The position numbers and the translations under genes are program-made. From a virus, in UHGV virus genome UHGV-1327195: 6,515 nucleotides of DNA. One strand, given 5' to 3'. Shown here in pieces: positions 1 to 6,515 of this stretch. How positions within the stretch are numbered: position 1 is the stretch's first letter; the number at the start of each line of letters is the position of its first letter. Below the pieces are notes generated by a model, which was not told the DNA's origin, made no database searches, and saw only the letters and a program-made list of their open reading frames with translations.

Positions 1-67
1 TGTTGATGAAAGCTGGCTACAGGAAGGCCAGACGCGAATTATTTTTGATGGCGTTCCTATTGGTTAA
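1..67 (+). CDS. lacZ: 3' end of a lacZ-alpha reading frame (5' part outside window). Frame from nt 2 reads VDESWLQEGQTRIIFDGVPIG then TAA at 65..67; the last three codons and the stop come from phage DNA after the junction at 55/56.
   Basis: Translation matches the E. coli beta-galactosidase N-terminal region (...NVDESWLQEGQTRIIFDGV) by recall. Lac-derived DNA ends in GTT at 53..55, half of a GTTAAC (HincII/HpaI) site, then phage sequence CCTATTGG resumes. Confidence 0.8.
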   Translation, partial: VDESWLQEGQTRIIFDGVPIG

Positions 68-192
68 AAAATGAGCTGATTTAACAAAAATTTAATGCGA
101 ATTTTAACAAAATATTAACGTTTACAATTTAAATATTTGCTTATACAATCTTCCTGTTTTTGGGGCTTTTCTGATTATCAACCGGGGTACAT
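56..192 (+). promoter_or_regulatory. Distal part of the Ff intergenic region: AT-rich remnant of plus-strand origin domain B (replication enhancer) followed by the gene II promoter and leader.
   Basis: AT-rich non-coding DNA directly upstream of the gene II ATG. Together with 6093..6460 it adds up to the 505-nt intergenic region expected for Ff phage (recalled figure). Confidence 0.75.
121..149 (+). promoter_or_regulatory. Putative sigma70 promoter for gene II: -35 TTTACA (121..126), 17-bp spacer, -10 TACAAT (144..149). The resulting short leader is where gene V protein is known to repress gene II translation.
   Basis: Hexamers and spacing read directly from the sequence; location fits the known gene II promoter region. 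Exact transcription start not determined. Confidence 0.5.
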
Positions 193-1425
193 ATGATTGA
201 CATGCTAGTTTTACGATTACCGTTCATCGATTCTCTTGTTTGCTCCAGACTCTCAGGCAATGACCTGATAGCCTTTGTAGATCTCTCAAAAATAGCTACC
301 CTCTCCGGCATTAATTTATCAGCTAGAACGGTTGAATATCATATTGATGGTGATTTGACTGTCTCCGGCCTTTCTCACCCTTTTGAATCTTTACCTACAC
401 ATTACTCAGGCATTGCATTTAAAATATATGAGGGTTCTAAAAATTTTTATCCTTGCGTTGAAATAAAGGCTTCTCCCGCAAAAGTATTACAGGGTCATAA
501 TGTTTTTGGTACAACCGATTTAGCTTTATGCTCTGAGGCTTTATTGCTTAATTTTGCTAATTCTTTGCCTTGCCTGTATGATTTATTGGATGTTAATGCT
601 ACTACTATTAGTAGAATTGATGCCACCTTTTCAGCTCGCGCCCCAAATGAAAATATAGCTAAACAGGTTATTGACCATTTGCGAAATGTATCTAATGGTC
701 AAACTAAATCTACTCGTTCGCAGAATTGGGAATCAACTGTTATATGGAATGAAACTTCCAGACACCGTACTTTAGTTGCATATTTAAAACATGTTGAGCT
801 ACAGCATTATATTCAGCAATTAAGCTCTAAGCCATCCGCAAAAATGACCTCTTATCAAAAGGAGCAATTAAAGGTACTCTCTAATCCTGACCTGTTGGAG
901 TTTGCTTCCGGTCTGGTTCGCTTTGAAGCTCGAATTAAAACGCGATATTTGAAGTCTTTCGGGCTTCCTCTTAATCTTTTTGATGCAATCCGCTTTGCTT
1001 CTGACTATAATAGTCAGGGTAAAGACCTGATTTTTGATTTATGGTCATTCTCGTTTTCTGAACTGTTTAAAGCATTTGAGGGGGATTCAATGAATATTTA
1101 TGACGATTCCGCAGTATTGGACGCTATCCAGTCTAAACATTTTACTATTACCCCCTCTGGCAAAACTTCTTTTGCAAAAGCCTCTCGCTATTTTGGTTTT
1201 TATCGTCGTCTGGTAAACGAGGGTTATGATAGTGTTGCTCTTACTATGCCTCGTAATTCCTTTTGGCGTTATGTATCTGCATTAGTTGAATGTGGTATTC
1301 CTAAATCTCAACTGATGAATCTTTCTACCTGTAATAATGTTGTTCCGTTAGTTCGTTTTATTAACGTAGATTTTTCTTCCCAACGTCCTGACTGGTATAA
1401 TGAGCCAGTTCTTAAAATCGCATAA
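193..1425 (+). CDS. II: Gene II protein (pII), 410 aa: site-specific nicking endonuclease that initiates rolling-circle plus-strand replication.
   Basis: ORF 193..1425 with ATG start; translation recognised as Ff pII. It sits immediately downstream of the intergenic region as in M13, f1 and fd. Confidence 0.97.
   Translation: MIDMLVLRLPFIDSLVCSRLSGNDLIAFVDLSKIATLSGINLSARTVEYHIDGDLTVSGLSHPFESLPTHYSGIAFKIYEGSKNFYPCVEIKASPAKVLQGHNVFGTTDLALCSEALLLNFANSLPCLYDLLDVNATTISRIDATFSARAPNENIAKQVIDHLRNVSNGQTKSTRSQNWESTVIWNETSRHRTLVAYLKHVELQHYIQQLSSKPSAKMTSYQKEQLKVLSNPDLLEFASGLVRFEARIKTRYLKSFGLPLNLFDAIRFASDYNSQGKDLIFDLWSFSFSELFKAFEGDSMNIYDDSAVLDAIQSKHFTITPSGKTSFAKASRYFGFYRRLVNEGYDSVALTMPRNSFWRYVSALVECGIPKSQLMNLSTCNNVVPLVRFINVDFSSQRPDWYNEPVLKIA
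1090..1425 (+). CDS. X: Gene X protein (pX), 111 aa, translated from an in-frame internal ATG of gene II (pII codon 300); replication regulator identical to the pII C-terminus.
   Basis: In-frame ATG at 1090..1092 (MNIYDDSAVLDAIQ...), sharing the gene II stop. (1090-193)/3 = 299, so it begins at pII residue 300 and gives 111 aa, as known for Ff phage. Confidence 0.9.
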   Translation: MNIYDDSAVLDAIQSKHFTITPSGKTSFAKASRYFGFYRRLVNEGYDSVALTMPRNSFWRYVSALVECGIPKSQLMNLSTCNNVVPLVRFINVDFSSQRPDWYNEPVLKIA

Positions 1426-1436
1426 GGTAATTCACA

Positions 1437-1700
1437 ATGATTAAAGTTGAAATTAAACCATCTCAAGCCCAATTTACTACTCGTTCTGGTGTTTCTCGTC
1501 AGGGCAAGCCTTATTCACTGAATGAGCAGCTTTGTTACGTTGATTTGGGTAATGAATATCCGGTTCTTGTCAAGATTACTCTTGATGAAGGTCAGCCAGC
1601 CTATGCGCCTGGTCTGTACACCGTTCATCTGTCCTCTTTCAAAGTTGGTCAGTTCGGTTCCCTTATGATTGACCGTCTGCGCCTCGTTCCGGCTAAGTAA
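1437..1700 (+). CDS. V: Gene V protein (pV), 87 aa: single-stranded DNA-binding protein that also represses gene II translation.
   Basis: ORF 1437..1700, translation MIKVEIKPSQAQFTTRSGVSRQGKPYSLNEQLCYVDLGNEYPVLVKITLDEGQPAYAPGLYTVHLSSFKVGQFGSLMIDRLRLVPAK recognised as Ff pV. AAGG ribosome-binding site about 10 nt upstream. Confidence 0.97.
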   Translation: MIKVEIKPSQAQFTTRSGVSRQGKPYSLNEQLCYVDLGNEYPVLVKITLDEGQPAYAPGLYTVHLSSFKVGQFGSLMIDRLRLVPAK

Positions 1701-1701
1701 C

Positions 1702-1803
1702 ATGGAGCAGGTCGCGGATTTCGACACAATTTATCAGGCGATGATACAAATCTCCGTTGTACTTTGTTTCGCGCTTGGTATAATCGCTGGGGGTCAAAGA
1801 TGA
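1702..1803 (+). CDS. VII: Gene VII protein (pVII), 33 aa: minor coat protein at the virion tip that emerges first.
   Basis: ATG at 1702, one nt after the gene V stop; translation MEQVADFDTIYQAMIQISVVLCFALGIIAGGQR; TGA at 1801..1803. Below the length cut-off of the ORF track. Confidence 0.9.
   Translation: MEQVADFDTIYQAMIQISVVLCFALGIIAGGQR
1757..1784 (+). promoter_or_regulatory. Putative sigma70 promoter inside gene VII: -35 TTGTAC (1757..1762), 16-bp spacer, -10 TATAAT (1779..1784); would drive gene IX and gene VIII transcripts.
   Basis: Consensus -10 and near-consensus -35 read from the sequence. Ff phage are known to have internal promoters feeding the abundant gene VIII message; the exact assignment is not verified. 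Confidence 0.45.
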
Positions 1804-1898
1804 GTGTTTTAGTGTATTCTTTTGCCTCTTTCGTTTTAGGTTGGTGCCTTCGTAGTGGCATTACGTATTTTACCCGTTTAATGGAAACTTCCTCATGA
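1800..1898 (+). CDS. IX: Gene IX protein (pIX), 32 aa: minor coat protein at the same virion tip as pVII.
   Basis: ATG at 1800..1802 overlaps the gene VII TGA (ATGA); translation MSVLVYSFASFVLGWCLRSGITYFTRLMETSS; stop TGA 1896..1898 overlaps the gene VIII ATG. Confidence 0.9.
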   Translation: MSVLVYSFASFVLGWCLRSGITYFTRLMETSS

Positions 1899-2116
1899 AA
1901 AAGTCTTTAGTCCTCAAAGCCTCTGTAGCCGTTGCTACCCTCGTTCCGATGCTGTCTTTCGCTGCTGAGGGTGACGATCCCGCAAAAGCGGCCTTTAACT
2001 CCCTGCAAGCCTCAGCGACCGAATATATCGGTTATGCGTGGGCGATGGTTGTTGTCATTGTCGGCGCAACTATCGGTATCAAGCTGTTTAAGAAATTCAC
2101 CTCGAAAGCAAGCTGA
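1895..2116 (+). CDS. VIII: Gene VIII major coat protein precursor (pVIII), 73 aa: 23-aa signal peptide (MKKSLVLKASVAVATLVPMLSFA) plus 50-aa mature coat protein AEGDDPAKAAFNSLQ...
   Basis: ORF 1895..2116; translation recognised. The mature protein has Asn at position 12, the residue recalled as distinguishing M13 from fd/f1 (Asp). Confidence 0.97.
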   Translation: MKKSLVLKASVAVATLVPMLSFAAEGDDPAKAAFNSLQASATEYIGYAWAMVVVIVGATIGIKLFKKFTSKAS

Positions 2117-2131
2117 TAAACCGATACAATT

Positions 2132-2157
2132 AAAGGCTCCTTTTGGAGCCTTTTTTT
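2132..2157 (+). terminator. Rho-independent terminator after gene VIII: stem AAAGGCTCC / GGAGCCTTT with a TTTT loop, followed by a T-run.
   Basis: Perfect inverted repeat 2132..2140 / 2145..2153 and a run of 7 T at 2151..2157, read directly; position matches the known central terminator of Ff phage. Confidence 0.85.
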
Positions 2158-2170
2158 GGAGATTTTCAAC

Positions 2171-3445
2171 GTGAAAAAATTATTATTCGCAATTCCTTTA
2201 GTTGTTCCTTTCTATTCTCACTCCGCTGAAACTGTTGAAAGTTGTTTAGCAAAATCCCATACAGAAAATTCATTTACTAACGTCTGGAAAGACGACAAAA
2301 CTTTAGATCGTTACGCTAACTATGAGGGCTGTCTGTGGAATGCTACAGGCGTTGTAGTTTGTACTGGTGACGAAACTCAGTGTTACGGTACATGGGTTCC
2401 TATTGGGCTTGCTATCCCTGAAAATGAGGGTGGTGGCTCTGAGGGTGGCGGTTCTGAGGGTGGCGGTTCTGAGGGTGGCGGTACTAAACCTCCTGAGTAC
2501 GGTGATACACCTATTCCGGGCTATACTTATATCAACCCTCTCGACGGCACTTATCCGCCTGGTACTGAGCAAAACCCCGCTAATCCTAATCCTTCTCTTG
2601 AGGAGTCTCAGCCTCTTAATACTTTCATGTTTCAGAATAATAGGTTCCGAAATAGGCAGGGGGCATTAACTGTTTATACGGGCACTGTTACTCAAGGCAC
2701 TGACCCCGTTAAAACTTATTACCAGTACACTCCTGTATCATCAAAAGCCATGTATGACGCTTACTGGAACGGTAAATTCAGAGACTGCGCTTTCCATTCT
2801 GGCTTTAATGAGGATTTATTTGTTTGTGAATATCAAGGCCAATCGTCTGACCTGCCTCAACCTCCTGTCAATGCTGGCGGCGGCTCTGGTGGTGGTTCTG
2901 GTGGCGGCTCTGAGGGTGGTGGCTCTGAGGGTGGCGGTTCTGAGGGTGGCGGCTCTGAGGGAGGCGGTTCCGGTGGTGGCTCTGGTTCCGGTGATTTTGA
3001 TTATGAAAAGATGGCAAACGCTAATAAGGGGGCTATGACCGAAAATGCCGATGAAAACGCGCTACAGTCTGACGCTAAAGGCAAACTTGATTCTGTCGCT
3101 ACTGATTACGGTGCTGCTATCGATGGTTTCATTGGTGACGTTTCCGGCCTTGCTAATGGTAATGGTGCTACTGGTGATTTTGCTGGCTCTAATTCCCAAA
3201 TGGCTCAAGTCGGTGACGGTGATAATTCACCTTTAATGAATAATTTCCGTCAATATTTACCTTCCCTCCCTCAATCGGTTGAATGTCGCCCTTTTGTCTT
3301 TGGCGCTGGTAAACCATATGAATTTTCTATTGATTGTGACAAAATAAACTTATTCCGTGGTGTCTTTGCGTTTCTTTTATATGTTGCCACCTTTATGTAT
3401 GTATTTTCTACGTTTGCTAACATACTGCGTAATAAGGAGTCTTAA
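2171..3445 (+). CDS. III: Gene III protein (pIII), 424 aa including an 18-aa signal peptide: minor coat and adsorption protein with N1 (TolA-binding) and N2 (F-pilus-binding) domains, two Gly/Ser linkers and a C-terminal anchor domain. Starts at GTG.
   Basis: Translation from GTG 2171 ([28 protein letters not shown]...) recognised as Ff pIII; GGAG ribosome-binding site at 2158..2161. The ORF-track start at 2156 is a TTG 15 nt upstream and is not the real start. Confidence 0.95.
2426..2485 (+). repeat. Four tandem 15-bp units (GAGGGTGGYGGYWCT) encoding the EGGGS x3 + EGGGT linker between pIII domains N1 and N2.
   Basis: Direct tandem repeats read from the sequence; they correspond to the first glycine-rich linker of pIII. 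Confidence 0.9.
2874..2992 (+). repeat. Longer degenerate tandem array encoding the GGGS/EGGGS linker between pIII N2 and the C-terminal domain.
   Basis: Repeated GGTGGYGGYTCT / GAGGGTGGYGGYTCT units read directly; translation [39 protein letters not shown]. Confidence 0.9.
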
Positions 3446-3447
3446 TC

Positions 3448-3786
3448 ATGCCAGTTCTTTTGGGTATTCCGTTATTATTGCGTTTCCTCGGTTTCCTTCT
3501 GGTAACTTTGTTCGGCTATCTGCTTACTTTTCTTAAAAAGGGCTTCGGTAAGATAGCTATTGCTATTTCATTGTTTCTTGCTCTTATTATTGGGCTTAAC
3601 TCAATTCTTGTGGGTTATCTCTCTGATATTAGCGCTCAATTACCCTCTGACTTTGTTCAGGGTGTTCAGTTAATTCTCCCGTCTAATGCGCTTCCCTGTT
3701 TTTATGTTATTCTCTCTGTAAAGGCTGCTATTTTCATTTTTGACGTTAAACAAAAAATCGTTTCTTATTTGGATTGGGATAAATAA
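3448..3786 (+). CDS. VI: Gene VI protein (pVI), 112 aa: hydrophobic minor coat protein at the pIII end of the virion.
   Basis: ORF 3448..3786, AAGGAG ribosome-binding site at 3434..3439; translation recognised as Ff pVI. Confidence 0.95.
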   Translation: MPVLLGIPLLLRFLGFLLVTLFGYLLTFLKKGFGKIAIAISLFLALIIGLNSILVGYLSDISAQLPSDFVQGVQLILPSNALPCFYVILSVKAAIFIFDVKQKIVSYLDWDK

Positions 3787-3787
3787 T

Positions 3788-4834
3788 ATGGCTGTTTATT
3801 TTGTAACTGGCAAATTAGGCTCTGGAAAGACGCTCGTTAGCGTTGGTAAGATTCAGGATAAAATTGTAGCTGGGTGCAAAATAGCAACTAATCTTGATTT
3901 AAGGCTTCAAAACCTCCCGCAAGTCGGGAGGTTCGCTAAAACGCCTCGCGTTCTTAGAATACCGGATAAGCCTTCTATATCTGATTTGCTTGCTATTGGG
4001 CGCGGTAATGATTCCTACGATGAAAATAAAAACGGCTTGCTTGTTCTCGATGAGTGCGGTACTTGGTTTAATACCCGTTCTTGGAATGATAAGGAAAGAC
4101 AGCCGATTATTGATTGGTTTCTACATGCTCGTAAATTAGGATGGGATATTATTTTTCTTGTTCAGGACTTATCTATTGTTGATAAACAGGCGCGTTCTGC
4201 ATTAGCTGAACATGTTGTTTATTGTCGTCGTCTGGACAGAATTACTTTACCTTTTGTCGGTACTTTATATTCTCTTATTACTGGCTCGAAAATGCCTCTG
4301 CCTAAATTACATGTTGGCGTTGTTAAATATGGCGATTCTCAATTAAGCCCTACTGTTGAGCGTTGGCTTTATACTGGTAAGAATTTGTATAACGCATATG
4401 ATACTAAACAGGCTTTTTCTAGTAATTATGATTCCGGTGTTTATTCTTATTTAACGCCTTATTTATCACACGGTCGGTATTTCAAACCATTAAATTTAGG
4501 TCAGAAGATGAAATTAACTAAAATATATTTGAAAAAGTTTTCTCGCGTTCTTTGTCTTGCGATTGGATTTGCATCAGCATTTACATATAGTTATATAACC
4601 CAACCTAAGCCGGAGGTTAAAAAGGTAGTCTCTCAGACCTATGATTTTGATAAATTCACTATTGACTCTTCTCAGCGTCTTAATCTAAGCTATCGCTATG
4701 TTTTCAAGGATTCTAAGGGAAAATTAATTAATAGCGACGATTTACAGAAGCAAGGTTATTCACTCACATATATTGATTTATGTACTGTTTCCATTAAAAA
4801 AGGTAATTCAAATGAAATTGTTAAATGTAATTAA
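3788..4834 (+). CDS. I: Gene I protein (pI), 348 aa: inner-membrane assembly ATPase with Walker A motif GKLGSGKT at residues 8..15 (nt 3809..3832).
   Basis: True start ATG 3788 (MAVYFVTGKLGSGKTLVS...), 2 nt after the gene VI stop. The ORF-track start at 3740 is an upstream in-frame ATG that overlaps gene VI and is not the biological start. Confidence 0.93.
   Translation: MAVYFVTGKLGSGKTLVSVGKIQDKIVAGCKIATNLDLRLQNLPQVGRFAKTPRVLRIPDKPSISDLLAIGRGNDSYDENKNGLLVLDECGTWFNTRSWNDKERQPIIDWFLHARKLGWDIIFLVQDLSIVDKQARSALAEHVVYCRRLDRITLPFVGTLYSLITGSKMPLPKLHVGVVKYGDSQLSPTVERWLYTGKNLYNAYDTKQAFSSNYDSGVYSYLTPYLSHGRYFKPLNLGQKMKLTKIYLKKFSRVLCLAIGFASAFTYSYITQPKPEVKKVVSQTYDFDKFTIDSSQRLNLSYRYVFKDSKGKLINSDDLQKQGYSLTYIDLCTVSIKKGNSNEIVKCN
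4508..4834 (+). CDS. XI: Gene XI protein (pXI, also called pI*), 108 aa: in-frame internal initiation at pI codon 241; membrane assembly protein identical to the pI C-terminus.
   Basis: In-frame ATG at 4508..4510 (MKLTKIYLKKFSRVLCLAIGF...); (4508-3788)/3 = 240, and 108 aa to the shared stop, as known for Ff phage. Confidence 0.85.
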   Translation: MKLTKIYLKKFSRVLCLAIGFASAFTYSYITQPKPEVKKVVSQTYDFDKFTIDSSQRLNLSYRYVFKDSKGKLINSDDLQKQGYSLTYIDLCTVSIKKGNSNEIVKCN

Positions 4835-6092
4835 TTTTGTTTTCTTGATGTTTGTTTCATCATCTTCTTTTGCTCAGGTAATTGAAATGAATAATTCGCC
4901 TCTGCGCGATTTTGTAACTTGGTATTCAAAGCAATCAGGCGAATCCGTTATTGTTTCTCCCGATGTAAAAGGTACTGTTACTGTATATTCATCTGACGTT
5001 AAACCTGAAAATCTACGCAATTTCTTTATTTCTGTTTTACGTGCAAATAATTTTGATATGGTAGGTTCTAACCCTTCCATTATTCAGAAGTATAATCCAA
5101 ACAATCAGGATTATATTGATGAATTGCCATCATCTGATAATCAGGAATATGATGATAATTCCGCTCCTTCTGGTGGTTTCTTTGTTCCGCAAAATGATAA
5201 TGTTACTCAAACTTTTAAAATTAATAACGTTCGGGCAAAGGATTTAATACGAGTTGTCGAATTGTTTGTAAAGTCTAATACTTCTAAATCCTCAAATGTA
5301 TTATCTATTGACGGCTCTAATCTATTAGTTGTTAGTGCTCCTAAAGATATTTTAGATAACCTTCCTCAATTCCTTTCAACTGTTGATTTGCCAACTGACC
5401 AGATATTGATTGAGGGTTTGATATTTGAGGTTCAGCAAGGTGATGCTTTAGATTTTTCATTTGCTGCTGGCTCTCAGCGTGGCACTGTTGCAGGCGGTGT
5501 TAATACTGACCGCCTCACCTCTGTTTTATCTTCTGCTGGTGGTTCGTTCGGTATTTTTAATGGCGATGTTTTAGGGCTATCAGTTCGCGCATTAAAGACT
5601 AATAGCCATTCAAAAATATTGTCTGTGCCACGTATTCTTACGCTTTCAGGTCAGAAGGGTTCTATCTCTGTTGGCCAGAATGTCCCTTTTATTACTGGTC
5701 GTGTGACTGGTGAATCTGCCAATGTAAATAATCCATTTCAGACGATTGAGCGTCAAAATGTAGGTATTTCCATGAGCGTTTTTCCTGTTGCAATGGCTGG
5801 CGGTAATATTGTTCTGGATATTACCAGCAAGGCCGATAGTTTGAGTTCTTCTACTCAGGCAAGTGATGTTATTACTAATCAAAGAAGTATTGCTACAACG
5901 GTTAATTTGCGTGATGGACAGACTCTTTTACTCGGTGGCCTCACTGATTATAAAAACACTTCTCAGGATTCTGGCGTACCGTTCCTGTCTAAAATCCCTT
6001 TAATCGGCCTCCTGTTTAGCTCCCGCTCTGATTCTAACGAGGAAAGCACGTTATACGTGCTCGTCAAAGCAACCATAGTACGCGCCCTGTAG
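4812..6092 (+). CDS. IV: Gene IV protein (pIV), 426 aa with a 21-aa signal peptide: outer-membrane secretin forming the phage export channel.
   Basis: True start ATG 4812 (MKLLNVINFVFLMFVSSSSFAQ...), with AAGG ribosome-binding site upstream; overlaps the gene I 3' end by 23 nt in another frame. The ORF-track start at 4773 is an upstream in-frame ATG. Confidence 0.95.
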   Translation: MKLLNVINFVFLMFVSSSSFAQVIEMNNSPLRDFVTWYSKQSGESVIVSPDVKGTVTVYSSDVKPENLRNFFISVLRANNFDMVGSNPSIIQKYNPNNQDYIDELPSSDNQEYDDNSAPSGGFFVPQNDNVTQTFKINNVRAKDLIRVVELFVKSNTSKSSNVLSIDGSNLLVVSAPKDILDNLPQFLSTVDLPTDQILIEGLIFEVQQGDALDFSFAAGSQRGTVAGGVNTDRLTSVLSSAGGSFGIFNGDVLGLSVRALKTNSHSKILSVPRILTLSGQKGSISVGQNVPFITGRVTGESANVNNPFQTIERQNVGISMSVFPVAMAGGNIVLDITSKADSLSSSTQASDVITNQRSIATTVNLRDGQTLLLGGLTDYKNTSQDSGVPFLSKIPLIGLLFSSRSDSNEESTLYVLVKATIVRAL

Positions 6093-6175
6093 CGGCGCAT
6101 TAAGCGCGGCGGGTGTGGTGGTTACGCGCAGCGTGACCGCTACACTTGCCAGCGCCCTAGCGCCCGCTCCTTTCG
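6093..6175 (+). promoter_or_regulatory. Packaging signal hairpin region (hairpin A) at the start of the intergenic region.
   Basis: GC-rich segment with extensive imperfect dyad symmetry (for example GTAGCGG 6089..6095 pairs with CCGCTAC 6137..6143) directly after the gene IV stop; position matches the Ff packaging signal. Boundaries approximate. Confidence 0.7.
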
Positions 6176-6345
6176 CTTTCTTCCCTTCCTTTCTCGCCAC
6201 GTTCGCCGGCTTTCCCCGTCAAGCTCTAAATCGGGGGCTCCCTTTAGGGTTCCGATTTAGTGCTTTACGGCACCTCGACCCCAAAAAACTTGATTTGGGT
6301 GATGGTTCACGTAGTGGGCCATCGCCCTGATAGACGGTTTTTCGC
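6176..6345 (+). promoter_or_regulatory. Minus-strand origin region (hairpins B and C), where host RNA polymerase makes the primer for complementary-strand synthesis.
   Basis: Location between the packaging signal and the plus-strand origin; contains dyad elements such as GGGTGATGG ... CCATCGCCC around 6297..6327. Boundaries approximate and based on the known Ff intergenic layout. Confidence 0.6.
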
Positions 6346-6460
6346 CCTTTGACGTTGGAGTCCACGTTCTTTAATAGTGGACTCTTGTTCCAAACTGGAA
6401 CAACACTCAACCCTATCTCGGGCTATTCTTTTGATTTATAAGGGATTTTGCCGATTTCGG
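6346..6460 (+). promoter_or_regulatory. Plus-strand (viral-strand) origin core: hairpin GAGTCCAC (6358..6365) / GTGGACTC (6377..6384) with the pII nick site in its loop (TTCTTT^AATAGTGG, between 6372 and 6373), a second palindrome TGTTCC-AAACT-GGAACA (6386..6402), and the start of domain B, cut by the vector junction at 6460/6461.
   Basis: Inverted repeats read directly; the nick position is assigned from the recalled pII recognition sequence of f1/M13. Confidence 0.75.
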
Positions 6461-6461
6461 A

Positions 6462-6515
6462 ACCACCATCAAACAGGATTTTCGCCTGCTGGGGCAAACC
6501 AGCGTGGACCGCTTG
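6462..6515 (+). other. lacI: Internal 3' fragment of lacI (vector-derived); translation TTIKQDFRLLGQTSVDRL in the lacI frame, running off the window end. Not a functional repressor gene.
   Basis: Matches the recalled C-terminal region of E. coli lacI (...PPLTTIKQDFRLLGQTSVDRLLQLSQ...). The fragment starts with AAC at 6461, the other half of a GTTAAC site, right after the phage sequence ...CCGATTTCGG. Confidence 0.8.

Follow-up and report, generated by a model that had tools for sequence, protein, structure and literature searches.

A 6,515-nt stretch of DNA filed as a virus is almost certainly the backbone of an M13mp cloning vector at the M13mp18/mp19 stage

The window, by which we mean the whole 6,515-nt stretch of DNA analysed, carries a complete M13 genome between bases 56 and 6460, circularly permuted and with all 11 genes intact. 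Open reading frames, alignment and Pfam domains together show the full Ff gene set in the M13-type order II-X-V-VII-IX-VIII-III-VI-I-XI-IV (Table 1). A megablast search against phage records matches bases 56..6460 to complete Ff genomes, with identities of 99.8% for M13 JX412914, 99.6% for NC_003287 and about 99% for f1. In the alignment, M13 position 1 falls on window position 595, and the two ends of the phage part, window 6460 and window 56, are the neighbouring M13 positions 5868 and 5869, respectively. Most of the phage proteins are identical to their wild-type counterparts, as listed in Table 1, and the amino-acid changes are limited to published ones. These comprise Met40Ile (G6125T, window 312), Thr184Ile and Gln206Tyr in gene II, and the two gene III changes given in the table.

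Table 1. Features of the 6,515-nt window, in window coordinates
Feature	Position	Strand	Evidence and remarks
lacZ-alpha segment, 3' end of the lac insert	1-55	+	100% match to E. coli lacZ; ends in GTT, the left half of HincII/HpaI GTTAAC
Distal intergenic region, M13 5869-6005	56-192	+	Alignment; second half of domain B (~56-97), gene II promoter, 5' UTR
Gene II, replication initiator nickase, 410 aa	193-1425	+	ORF; Pfam Phage_CRI, G2P_X_C
Gene X, in-frame internal start within gene II	1090-1425	+	ORF
Gene V, ssDNA-binding protein	1437-1700	+	Identical to wild type; Pfam
Gene VII, minor coat protein	1702-1803	+	Protein identical to wild type; Pfam
Gene IX, minor coat protein	1800-1898	+	Wild-type protein; mp18 marker C1229T (window 1823) is silent
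Gene VIII, major coat protein	1895-2116	+	Identical to wild type; Pfam
Gene VIII/III intergenic hairpin GGCTCC-TTTT-GGAGCC with downstream T run	2133-2157	+	Alignment
Gene III, attachment protein, GTG start, 424 aa	2171-3445	+	Pro29Ser, Pro216Leu; Pfam
Gene VI, minor coat protein	3448-3786	+	Identical to wild type; Pfam
Gene I, assembly ATPase (Zot family)	3788-4834	+	Identical to wild type; Pfam
Gene XI, in-frame internal start within gene I	4508-4834	+	Identical to wild type
Gene IV, outer-membrane secretin	4812-6092	+	Identical to the JX412914 protein; C at M13 5092 (non-M13KE state)
Proximal intergenic region, M13 5501-5868	6093-6460	+	Alignment; ends in GG, the left half of a HaeIII site
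lacI 3' coding fragment, start of the lac insert	6461-6515	+	100% match to E. coli lacI; begins with AAC, the right half of GTTAAC

The intergenic region is present as two separate pieces of 368 nt (6093-6460) and 137 nt (56-192), which together make up M13 5501-6005 and add up to the 505 nt that an earlier note on this DNA had counted. The proximal piece contains the long hairpin of the packaging signal at about 6091-6168 (z = -4.3 relative to shuffled sequences), the hairpin of the (-) origin at 6216-6270 and the palindrome of domain A at 6377-6411. An Rfam scan of the window returned no family at the gathering score. The motif CTTT^AATA, mapped by alignment with its cut between window 6372 and 6373, is what we take to be the nick site of the gene II protein. 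Following the published limits, domain A of the (+) origin (M13 5769-5819) corresponds to window 6361-6411 and is intact, while domain B (M13 5820 to ~5910) corresponds to window 6412-6460 and ~56-97, at opposite ends of the window (PMC5405960). The distal intergenic piece also carries the mp18 marker C5909T, at window 96.

At both ends of the window the phage sequence passes abruptly into lac DNA. On the lacI side, positions 6451-6460 read CCGATTTCGG and are followed by AACCACCATC from 6461; on the lacZ side, positions 47-55 read GATGGCGTT and are followed by CCTATTGG from 56. Reading the sequence thus places the boundaries at 6460/6461 and 55/56, exactly where the earlier note had drawn them. 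At the insertion point wild-type M13 reads ...GATTTCGG/CCTATTGG, with a GGCC (HaeIII) site at 5867, which agrees with the proposal that the GG and CC flanking the insert are the two halves of a HaeIII-type site. Each terminal 55-mer has 100% matches in thousands of records, one to E. coli lacZ and the other to lacI, and the two always lie 789 bp apart. In native lac DNA (F' lac record), ccgccgtt stands directly before the lacI-side 55-mer (ccgccgtt/AACCACC) and aactcgg directly after the lacZ-side one (GATGGCGTT/aactcgg). Because of these native flanks, both ends of the lac fragment can be recognized as halves of GTTAAC, bearing out the HincII half sites suggested for AAC and GTT, and the two GTTAAC at the fragment ends are the only HincII-type sites in that native stretch. 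The insert is oriented with its lacI end adjoining M13 5868 and its lacZ end adjoining M13 5869. Across the lacZ junction, a reading frame at 2-67 runs through lacZ-alpha (...IIFDGV), continues for three phage codons (PIG) and then stops. The position 5868/5869 is the one published for the lac insertion in M13mp18 (PMC5405960). It falls within the limits of domain B (5820 to ~5910; PMC5405960), in line with the earlier reading of a blunt lac fragment placed in the intergenic region, inside that domain.

The backbone was compared with S1 Table of PMC5405960, which sets out the differences among wild-type M13, M13mp18 and M13KE. All 13 M13mp18 substitutions are present in the window, at M13 positions 3, 149, 213, 214, 216, 1229, 1663, 2224, 2225, 2229, 5909, 6095 and 6125. 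When compared with JX412914, the phage part differs at 15 positions only, in M13 numbering: 12 substitutions (the positions just listed, from 3 to 6095), two missing T's, and position 2095, which is a variant private to JX412914. The remaining substitution, G6125T (Met40Ile), also occurs in JX412914, a record labelled 'wild-type', so that on its own it is not diagnostic of M13mp18.

The same comparison accounts for the restriction sites of the backbone. In gene III, the wild-type BamHI site GGATCC (M13 2220) has become GGATTT at window 2812-2817. In gene II, the wild-type AccI site (M13 6090) is destroyed and a BglII site is gained at window 279-284, and the wild-type HincII site (M13 6405) is destroyed at window 597. 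The window contains no site for EcoRI, SacI, KpnI, SmaI, BamHI, XbaI, SalI, AccI, HincII, PstI, SphI or HindIII.

No M13mp record was found in the phage, plasmid and E. coli genome collections, where the best matches are natural Ff phages (<=98% coverage) and short f1-origin or lac pieces. The vector was therefore sought in public assemblies, and the identity of the window is based on public contaminant contigs together with the published difference table (S1 Table, PMC5405960). A public assembly collection lists the window's exact gene II protein in 110 indexed blocks. Four contigs (L007, L008, L009 and L011) carry the mp18 polylinker ATGACCATGATTACGAATTCGAGCTCGGTACC...AAGCTTGGCACTGGCC. Two of these, L007 and L008, align with the window from 1 to 6515 in one piece, free of mismatches and interrupted by only one 1-nt gap. 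L009 aligns in two pieces covering most of the window, equally free of mismatches and with one 1-nt gap, and L011 does so in two pieces with the same gap and two mismatches of its own. L009 holds the whole insert between both phage junctions, 843 nt in length, corresponding to 789 nt plus a 54-nt polylinker. In this contig, 733 nt lead from the end of the window back to its start, consisting of the remaining lacI 3' sequence, the lac promoter, the operator, the mp18 polylinker and lacZ-alpha. Alignment with the public contigs bearing M13mp18 thus gives the result that the earlier note had anticipated, with about 100% identity to M13mp18 and both window ends inside the 843-nt lac insert. Judged at the sequence level, the matches of the junctions and of the backbone are full-length, essentially identical and not due to chance.

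Searches with the junctions themselves returned few further contigs. Exact-junction scans of IMG/VR gave no match, and junction scans of genomes and of metagenomes gave one contig each. In one of these two contigs (L004), the lac promoter, the operator and a polylinker follow the lacI junction, and the contig ends exactly where the lacZ sequences of pUC19 and M13mp diverge; its 'mp19' polylinker may belong to pUC19. The other (L005) contains only about 350 nt of the phage/lacI junction, within a different engineered construct. Among the contigs with the window's gene II protein, a TARA Oceans scaffold (L006), whose first base is the same as that of the window, was considered as a full M13mp19 and rejected as a reference, since beyond the lac sequence common to both vectors it continues into a pUC19 backbone and is a chimera. 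The phage/lacI junction also turns up in a contig assigned to a SAR11 single-cell genome. Vector contamination is common in public assemblies, and it can create chimeric contigs via shared lac sequence.

That the window opens inside lac is probably an artefact of assembly rather than a feature of the molecule itself. The lac flanks measure 55 and 55 nt in the window, and 119 and 119 nt in a contig with a SPAdes-type name (L010) derived from the same vector. Such equal flanks are what a contig break at a repeat would give, the unique segment of the de Bruijn graph being bounded by lac and the flank being equal to k. Native E. coli lac DNA in the sample would be the other copy of the repeat, because the shared sequence starts exactly at the HincII half sites. 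Misassembly related to lac is seen elsewhere as well, in L006, which is joined to pUC19, and in L004, which stops at the divergence of the pUC19 and M13mp lacZ sequences.

The hairpin and T run downstream of gene VIII, which in Ff phages serve as the gene VIII terminator, were not called by a simple terminator scan. It is in the T run (2151-2157) alone that the window differs from M13mp18: the run has seven T's (T7) in the window, eight (T8) in 8 of 8 public M13mp contigs and nine (T9) in wild-type M13 (1557-1565). The claim that every base of the window is accounted for by the vector consequently holds except for this one T, which is missing relative to the M13mp18 contigs. The state published for M13mp18 is the loss of one T from the T9 run, giving T8 (S1 Table, PMC5405960). 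The T7 of the window could be either genuine variation or a homopolymer error. The run lies 13 nt upstream of the GTG start of gene III, and we consider it very improbable that T7 is a heritable variant of M13mp18/19 stocks that measurably changes read-through or gene III expression.

Taken together, the two junctions, the 13 of 13 markers and the contigs bearing mp18 support the reading of the window as an M13mp-type vector backbone opened within its lac insert, as the earlier note had proposed. We are nearly certain that it represents a Messing M13mp vector backbone of the M13mp18/mp19 stage, that is, a whole M13 genome whose domain B is split by a lac fragment. Since the polylinker falls outside the window, mp18, mp19 and derivatives carrying inserts look the same from within it. 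The molecule could accordingly have been a derivative of the same mp18/19 backbone, for example a recombinant clone, or a DNA-origami scaffold lengthened by additional DNA at the polylinker. This backbone is common to many derivatives, and the polylinker region (733 nt in M13mp18) lies beyond the window ends and is not constrained by it. Nothing within the window speaks against a derivative, but in those public contigs that could be read and that have the identical gene II protein, the mp18 polylinker is the plain one, and we regard a derivative as rather unlikely.

M13KE, the Ph.D. phage-display vector descended from M13mp19, has the lac insertion site and all 13 mp18 substitutions in common with the window. 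However, positions 1611, 1614, 1632, 1635 and 5092 are all in the mp18 state, and gene III contains no KpnI or EagI site. The five M13KE changes T1611G, T1614A, C1632G, T1635C and C5092T are thus absent, which refutes this identity and leaves it a negligible probability. A natural Ff phage that had taken up host lac DNA, or an assembly chimera of wild-type M13 and E. coli lac, is just as remote. In its favour, natural Ff isolates match the phage part at 98-99.8% identity and lac belongs to the host. Against it, each of the two junctions coincides exactly with a blunt restriction half site, the backbone carries engineered site removals and every published mp18 marker, and the same junctions, enclosing a synthetic polylinker, are found again in independent contigs from unrelated samples, so that both a natural lac-transducing phage and a chimera are effectively refuted.

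With the M13mp18/mp19 backbone as the preferred reading, the window is an ordinary man-made construct and no new biological system. Its source is most likely a contaminant or a spike-in. The importance of the window is one of data hygiene only: it should be flagged as cloning-vector sequence and not be counted as an environmental or novel inovirus.

The way in which such a vector works is known. Through alpha-complementation, the lac insert allows blue/white screening, and the removal of BamHI, AccI and HincII from the backbone serves to make the polylinker sites unique. Rolling-circle replication starts at the nick site of domain A, which is intact in the window. The blunt 789-bp HincII fragment, comprising lacI', the promoter, the operator and lacZ-alpha, splits the domain B enhancer at the HaeIII site at 5868/5869. 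Domain B is an IHF-binding replication enhancer, and the Met40Ile change of the gene II protein lowers the dependence of initiation on it, so that M13mp phages tolerate the split (PMC5405960). Propagation of M13mp18 nevertheless still lags about 100-fold behind that of the wild type at early times (PMC5405960).

When the window is set beside known systems, wild-type M13 (NC_003287 and JX412914) shares with it the 11 genes and the 505-nt intergenic region, at 99.6-99.8% identity. In wild-type M13, however, the intergenic region is continuous and the BamHI, AccI and HincII sites are kept, whereas in the window the region is split by lac and these sites are gone. Relative to NC_003287, the window shows 12 substitutions, the 2-T deletion and, in addition, G6125T. 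M13KE resembles the window in its lac insertion site and its mp18-derived backbone markers, and differs from it in having engineered KpnI and EagI sites within gene III as well as a T at 5092, the gene III leader of the window being wild-type. The closest likeness in kind is to M13mp18 and M13mp19 (7249 nt), with which the window agrees in gene order and content, in the insertion site, in the 13 substitutions, in the loss of BamHI, AccI and HincII and in the gain of BglII. These two vectors are told apart by the 54-nt polylinker, which lies in the early codons of lacZ-alpha and separates mp18 from mp19 by its orientation; in L007, L008, L009 and L011 it has the mp18 orientation. The window departs from M13mp18 in its T run, one T shorter (T7 against T8); the construct and its mode of action are already known, and the window holds nothing new.

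M13mp18/19 DNA is a widespread contaminant of, or spike-in to, public metagenomes. The vector-type gene II protein (M40I, T184I, Q206Y) is indexed as an exact match in 110 blocks of the public assembly collection, which span ENA, JGI and Logan assemblies. At the level of single records, JPUP01000095.1, a contig of 4.1 kb that belongs to a marine single-cell genome assembly and is deposited under the name SAR11 cluster bacterium PRT-SC02, is M13mp vector DNA with 99.97% identity to the corresponding part of the window. This contig carries the lac promoter, the operator and a HindIII-first polylinker, and stops exactly where the lacZ sequences of pUC19 and M13mp diverge. Its presence represents contamination within a public genome record.

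A TARA Oceans scaffold (L006) shares its starting base with the window, passes through the phage and then into lac, beyond which it continues into what we take to be the pUC19 backbone. Since it leaves the M13mp circle unclosed, this scaffold is a vector-vector chimera, joined via the shared lac sequence. In a metagenome contig (L005), the phage origin region is reduced to its last ~150 nt, and this remnant abuts the insert's lacI end. The junction piece is flanked on one side by pBluescript-like polylinker sequence and on the other, presumably, by a T-DNA border region from a binary vector of the pBIN19 type. L005 is another engineered descendant of the same phage/lacI junction.

The lac flanks of the window are exactly symmetric (55/55), as are those of L010, a contig of this vector with a SPAdes-style name (119/119). 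This symmetry suggests that both contigs were cut at a lac repeat, with a flank length equal to the k-mer size, in which case native lac DNA, probably from E. coli, would be present in the same samples. The window and M13mp18 differ only in the T run that follows the gene VIII hairpin. Comparison of the sequences gives T7 in the window, T8 in all eight public M13mp contigs read and T9 in wild-type M13; the T7 run could be either a homopolymer error or a genuine stock variant.

Coordinates of the features compared
Record	Position	Feature
Window	1-55, 6461-6515	lac flanks
Window	2151-2157	T run after gene VIII hairpin
Window	2929-6515	part matched by JPUP01000095.1
Window	6314-6460	phage origin remnant kept in L005
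L005	2520-2837	region with reduced phage origin
L006	6517-7332	region of the vector-vector chimera
L010	1-119, 6526-6644	lac flanks
NC_003287	1579, 1737, 2710, 4453-4489, 4747, 4786, 5374, 5443	examples of the 13 differences (M13 numbering)
JX412914	6125	T, gene II Met40Ile

When compared with the RefSeq M13 record (NC_003287), 13 further differences are common to the window, the wild-type M13 record JX412914 and all the vector contigs, one of them being an ATG in NC_003287 at the GTG start of gene III. These differences look like errors in the 1980 reference or strain differences rather than vector features.

The gene II Met40Ile allele is generally cited as M13mp1's compensating mutation. 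In the marker comparison, JX412914 ('wild-type Rutgers' M13) carries this allele while lacking every other mp18 marker, and a separate Yale M13 stock has been reported to be identical to JX412914 (PMC4888304). Met40Ile therefore also circulates in laboratory M13 without the insert, and the allele may have preceded the lac insertion.
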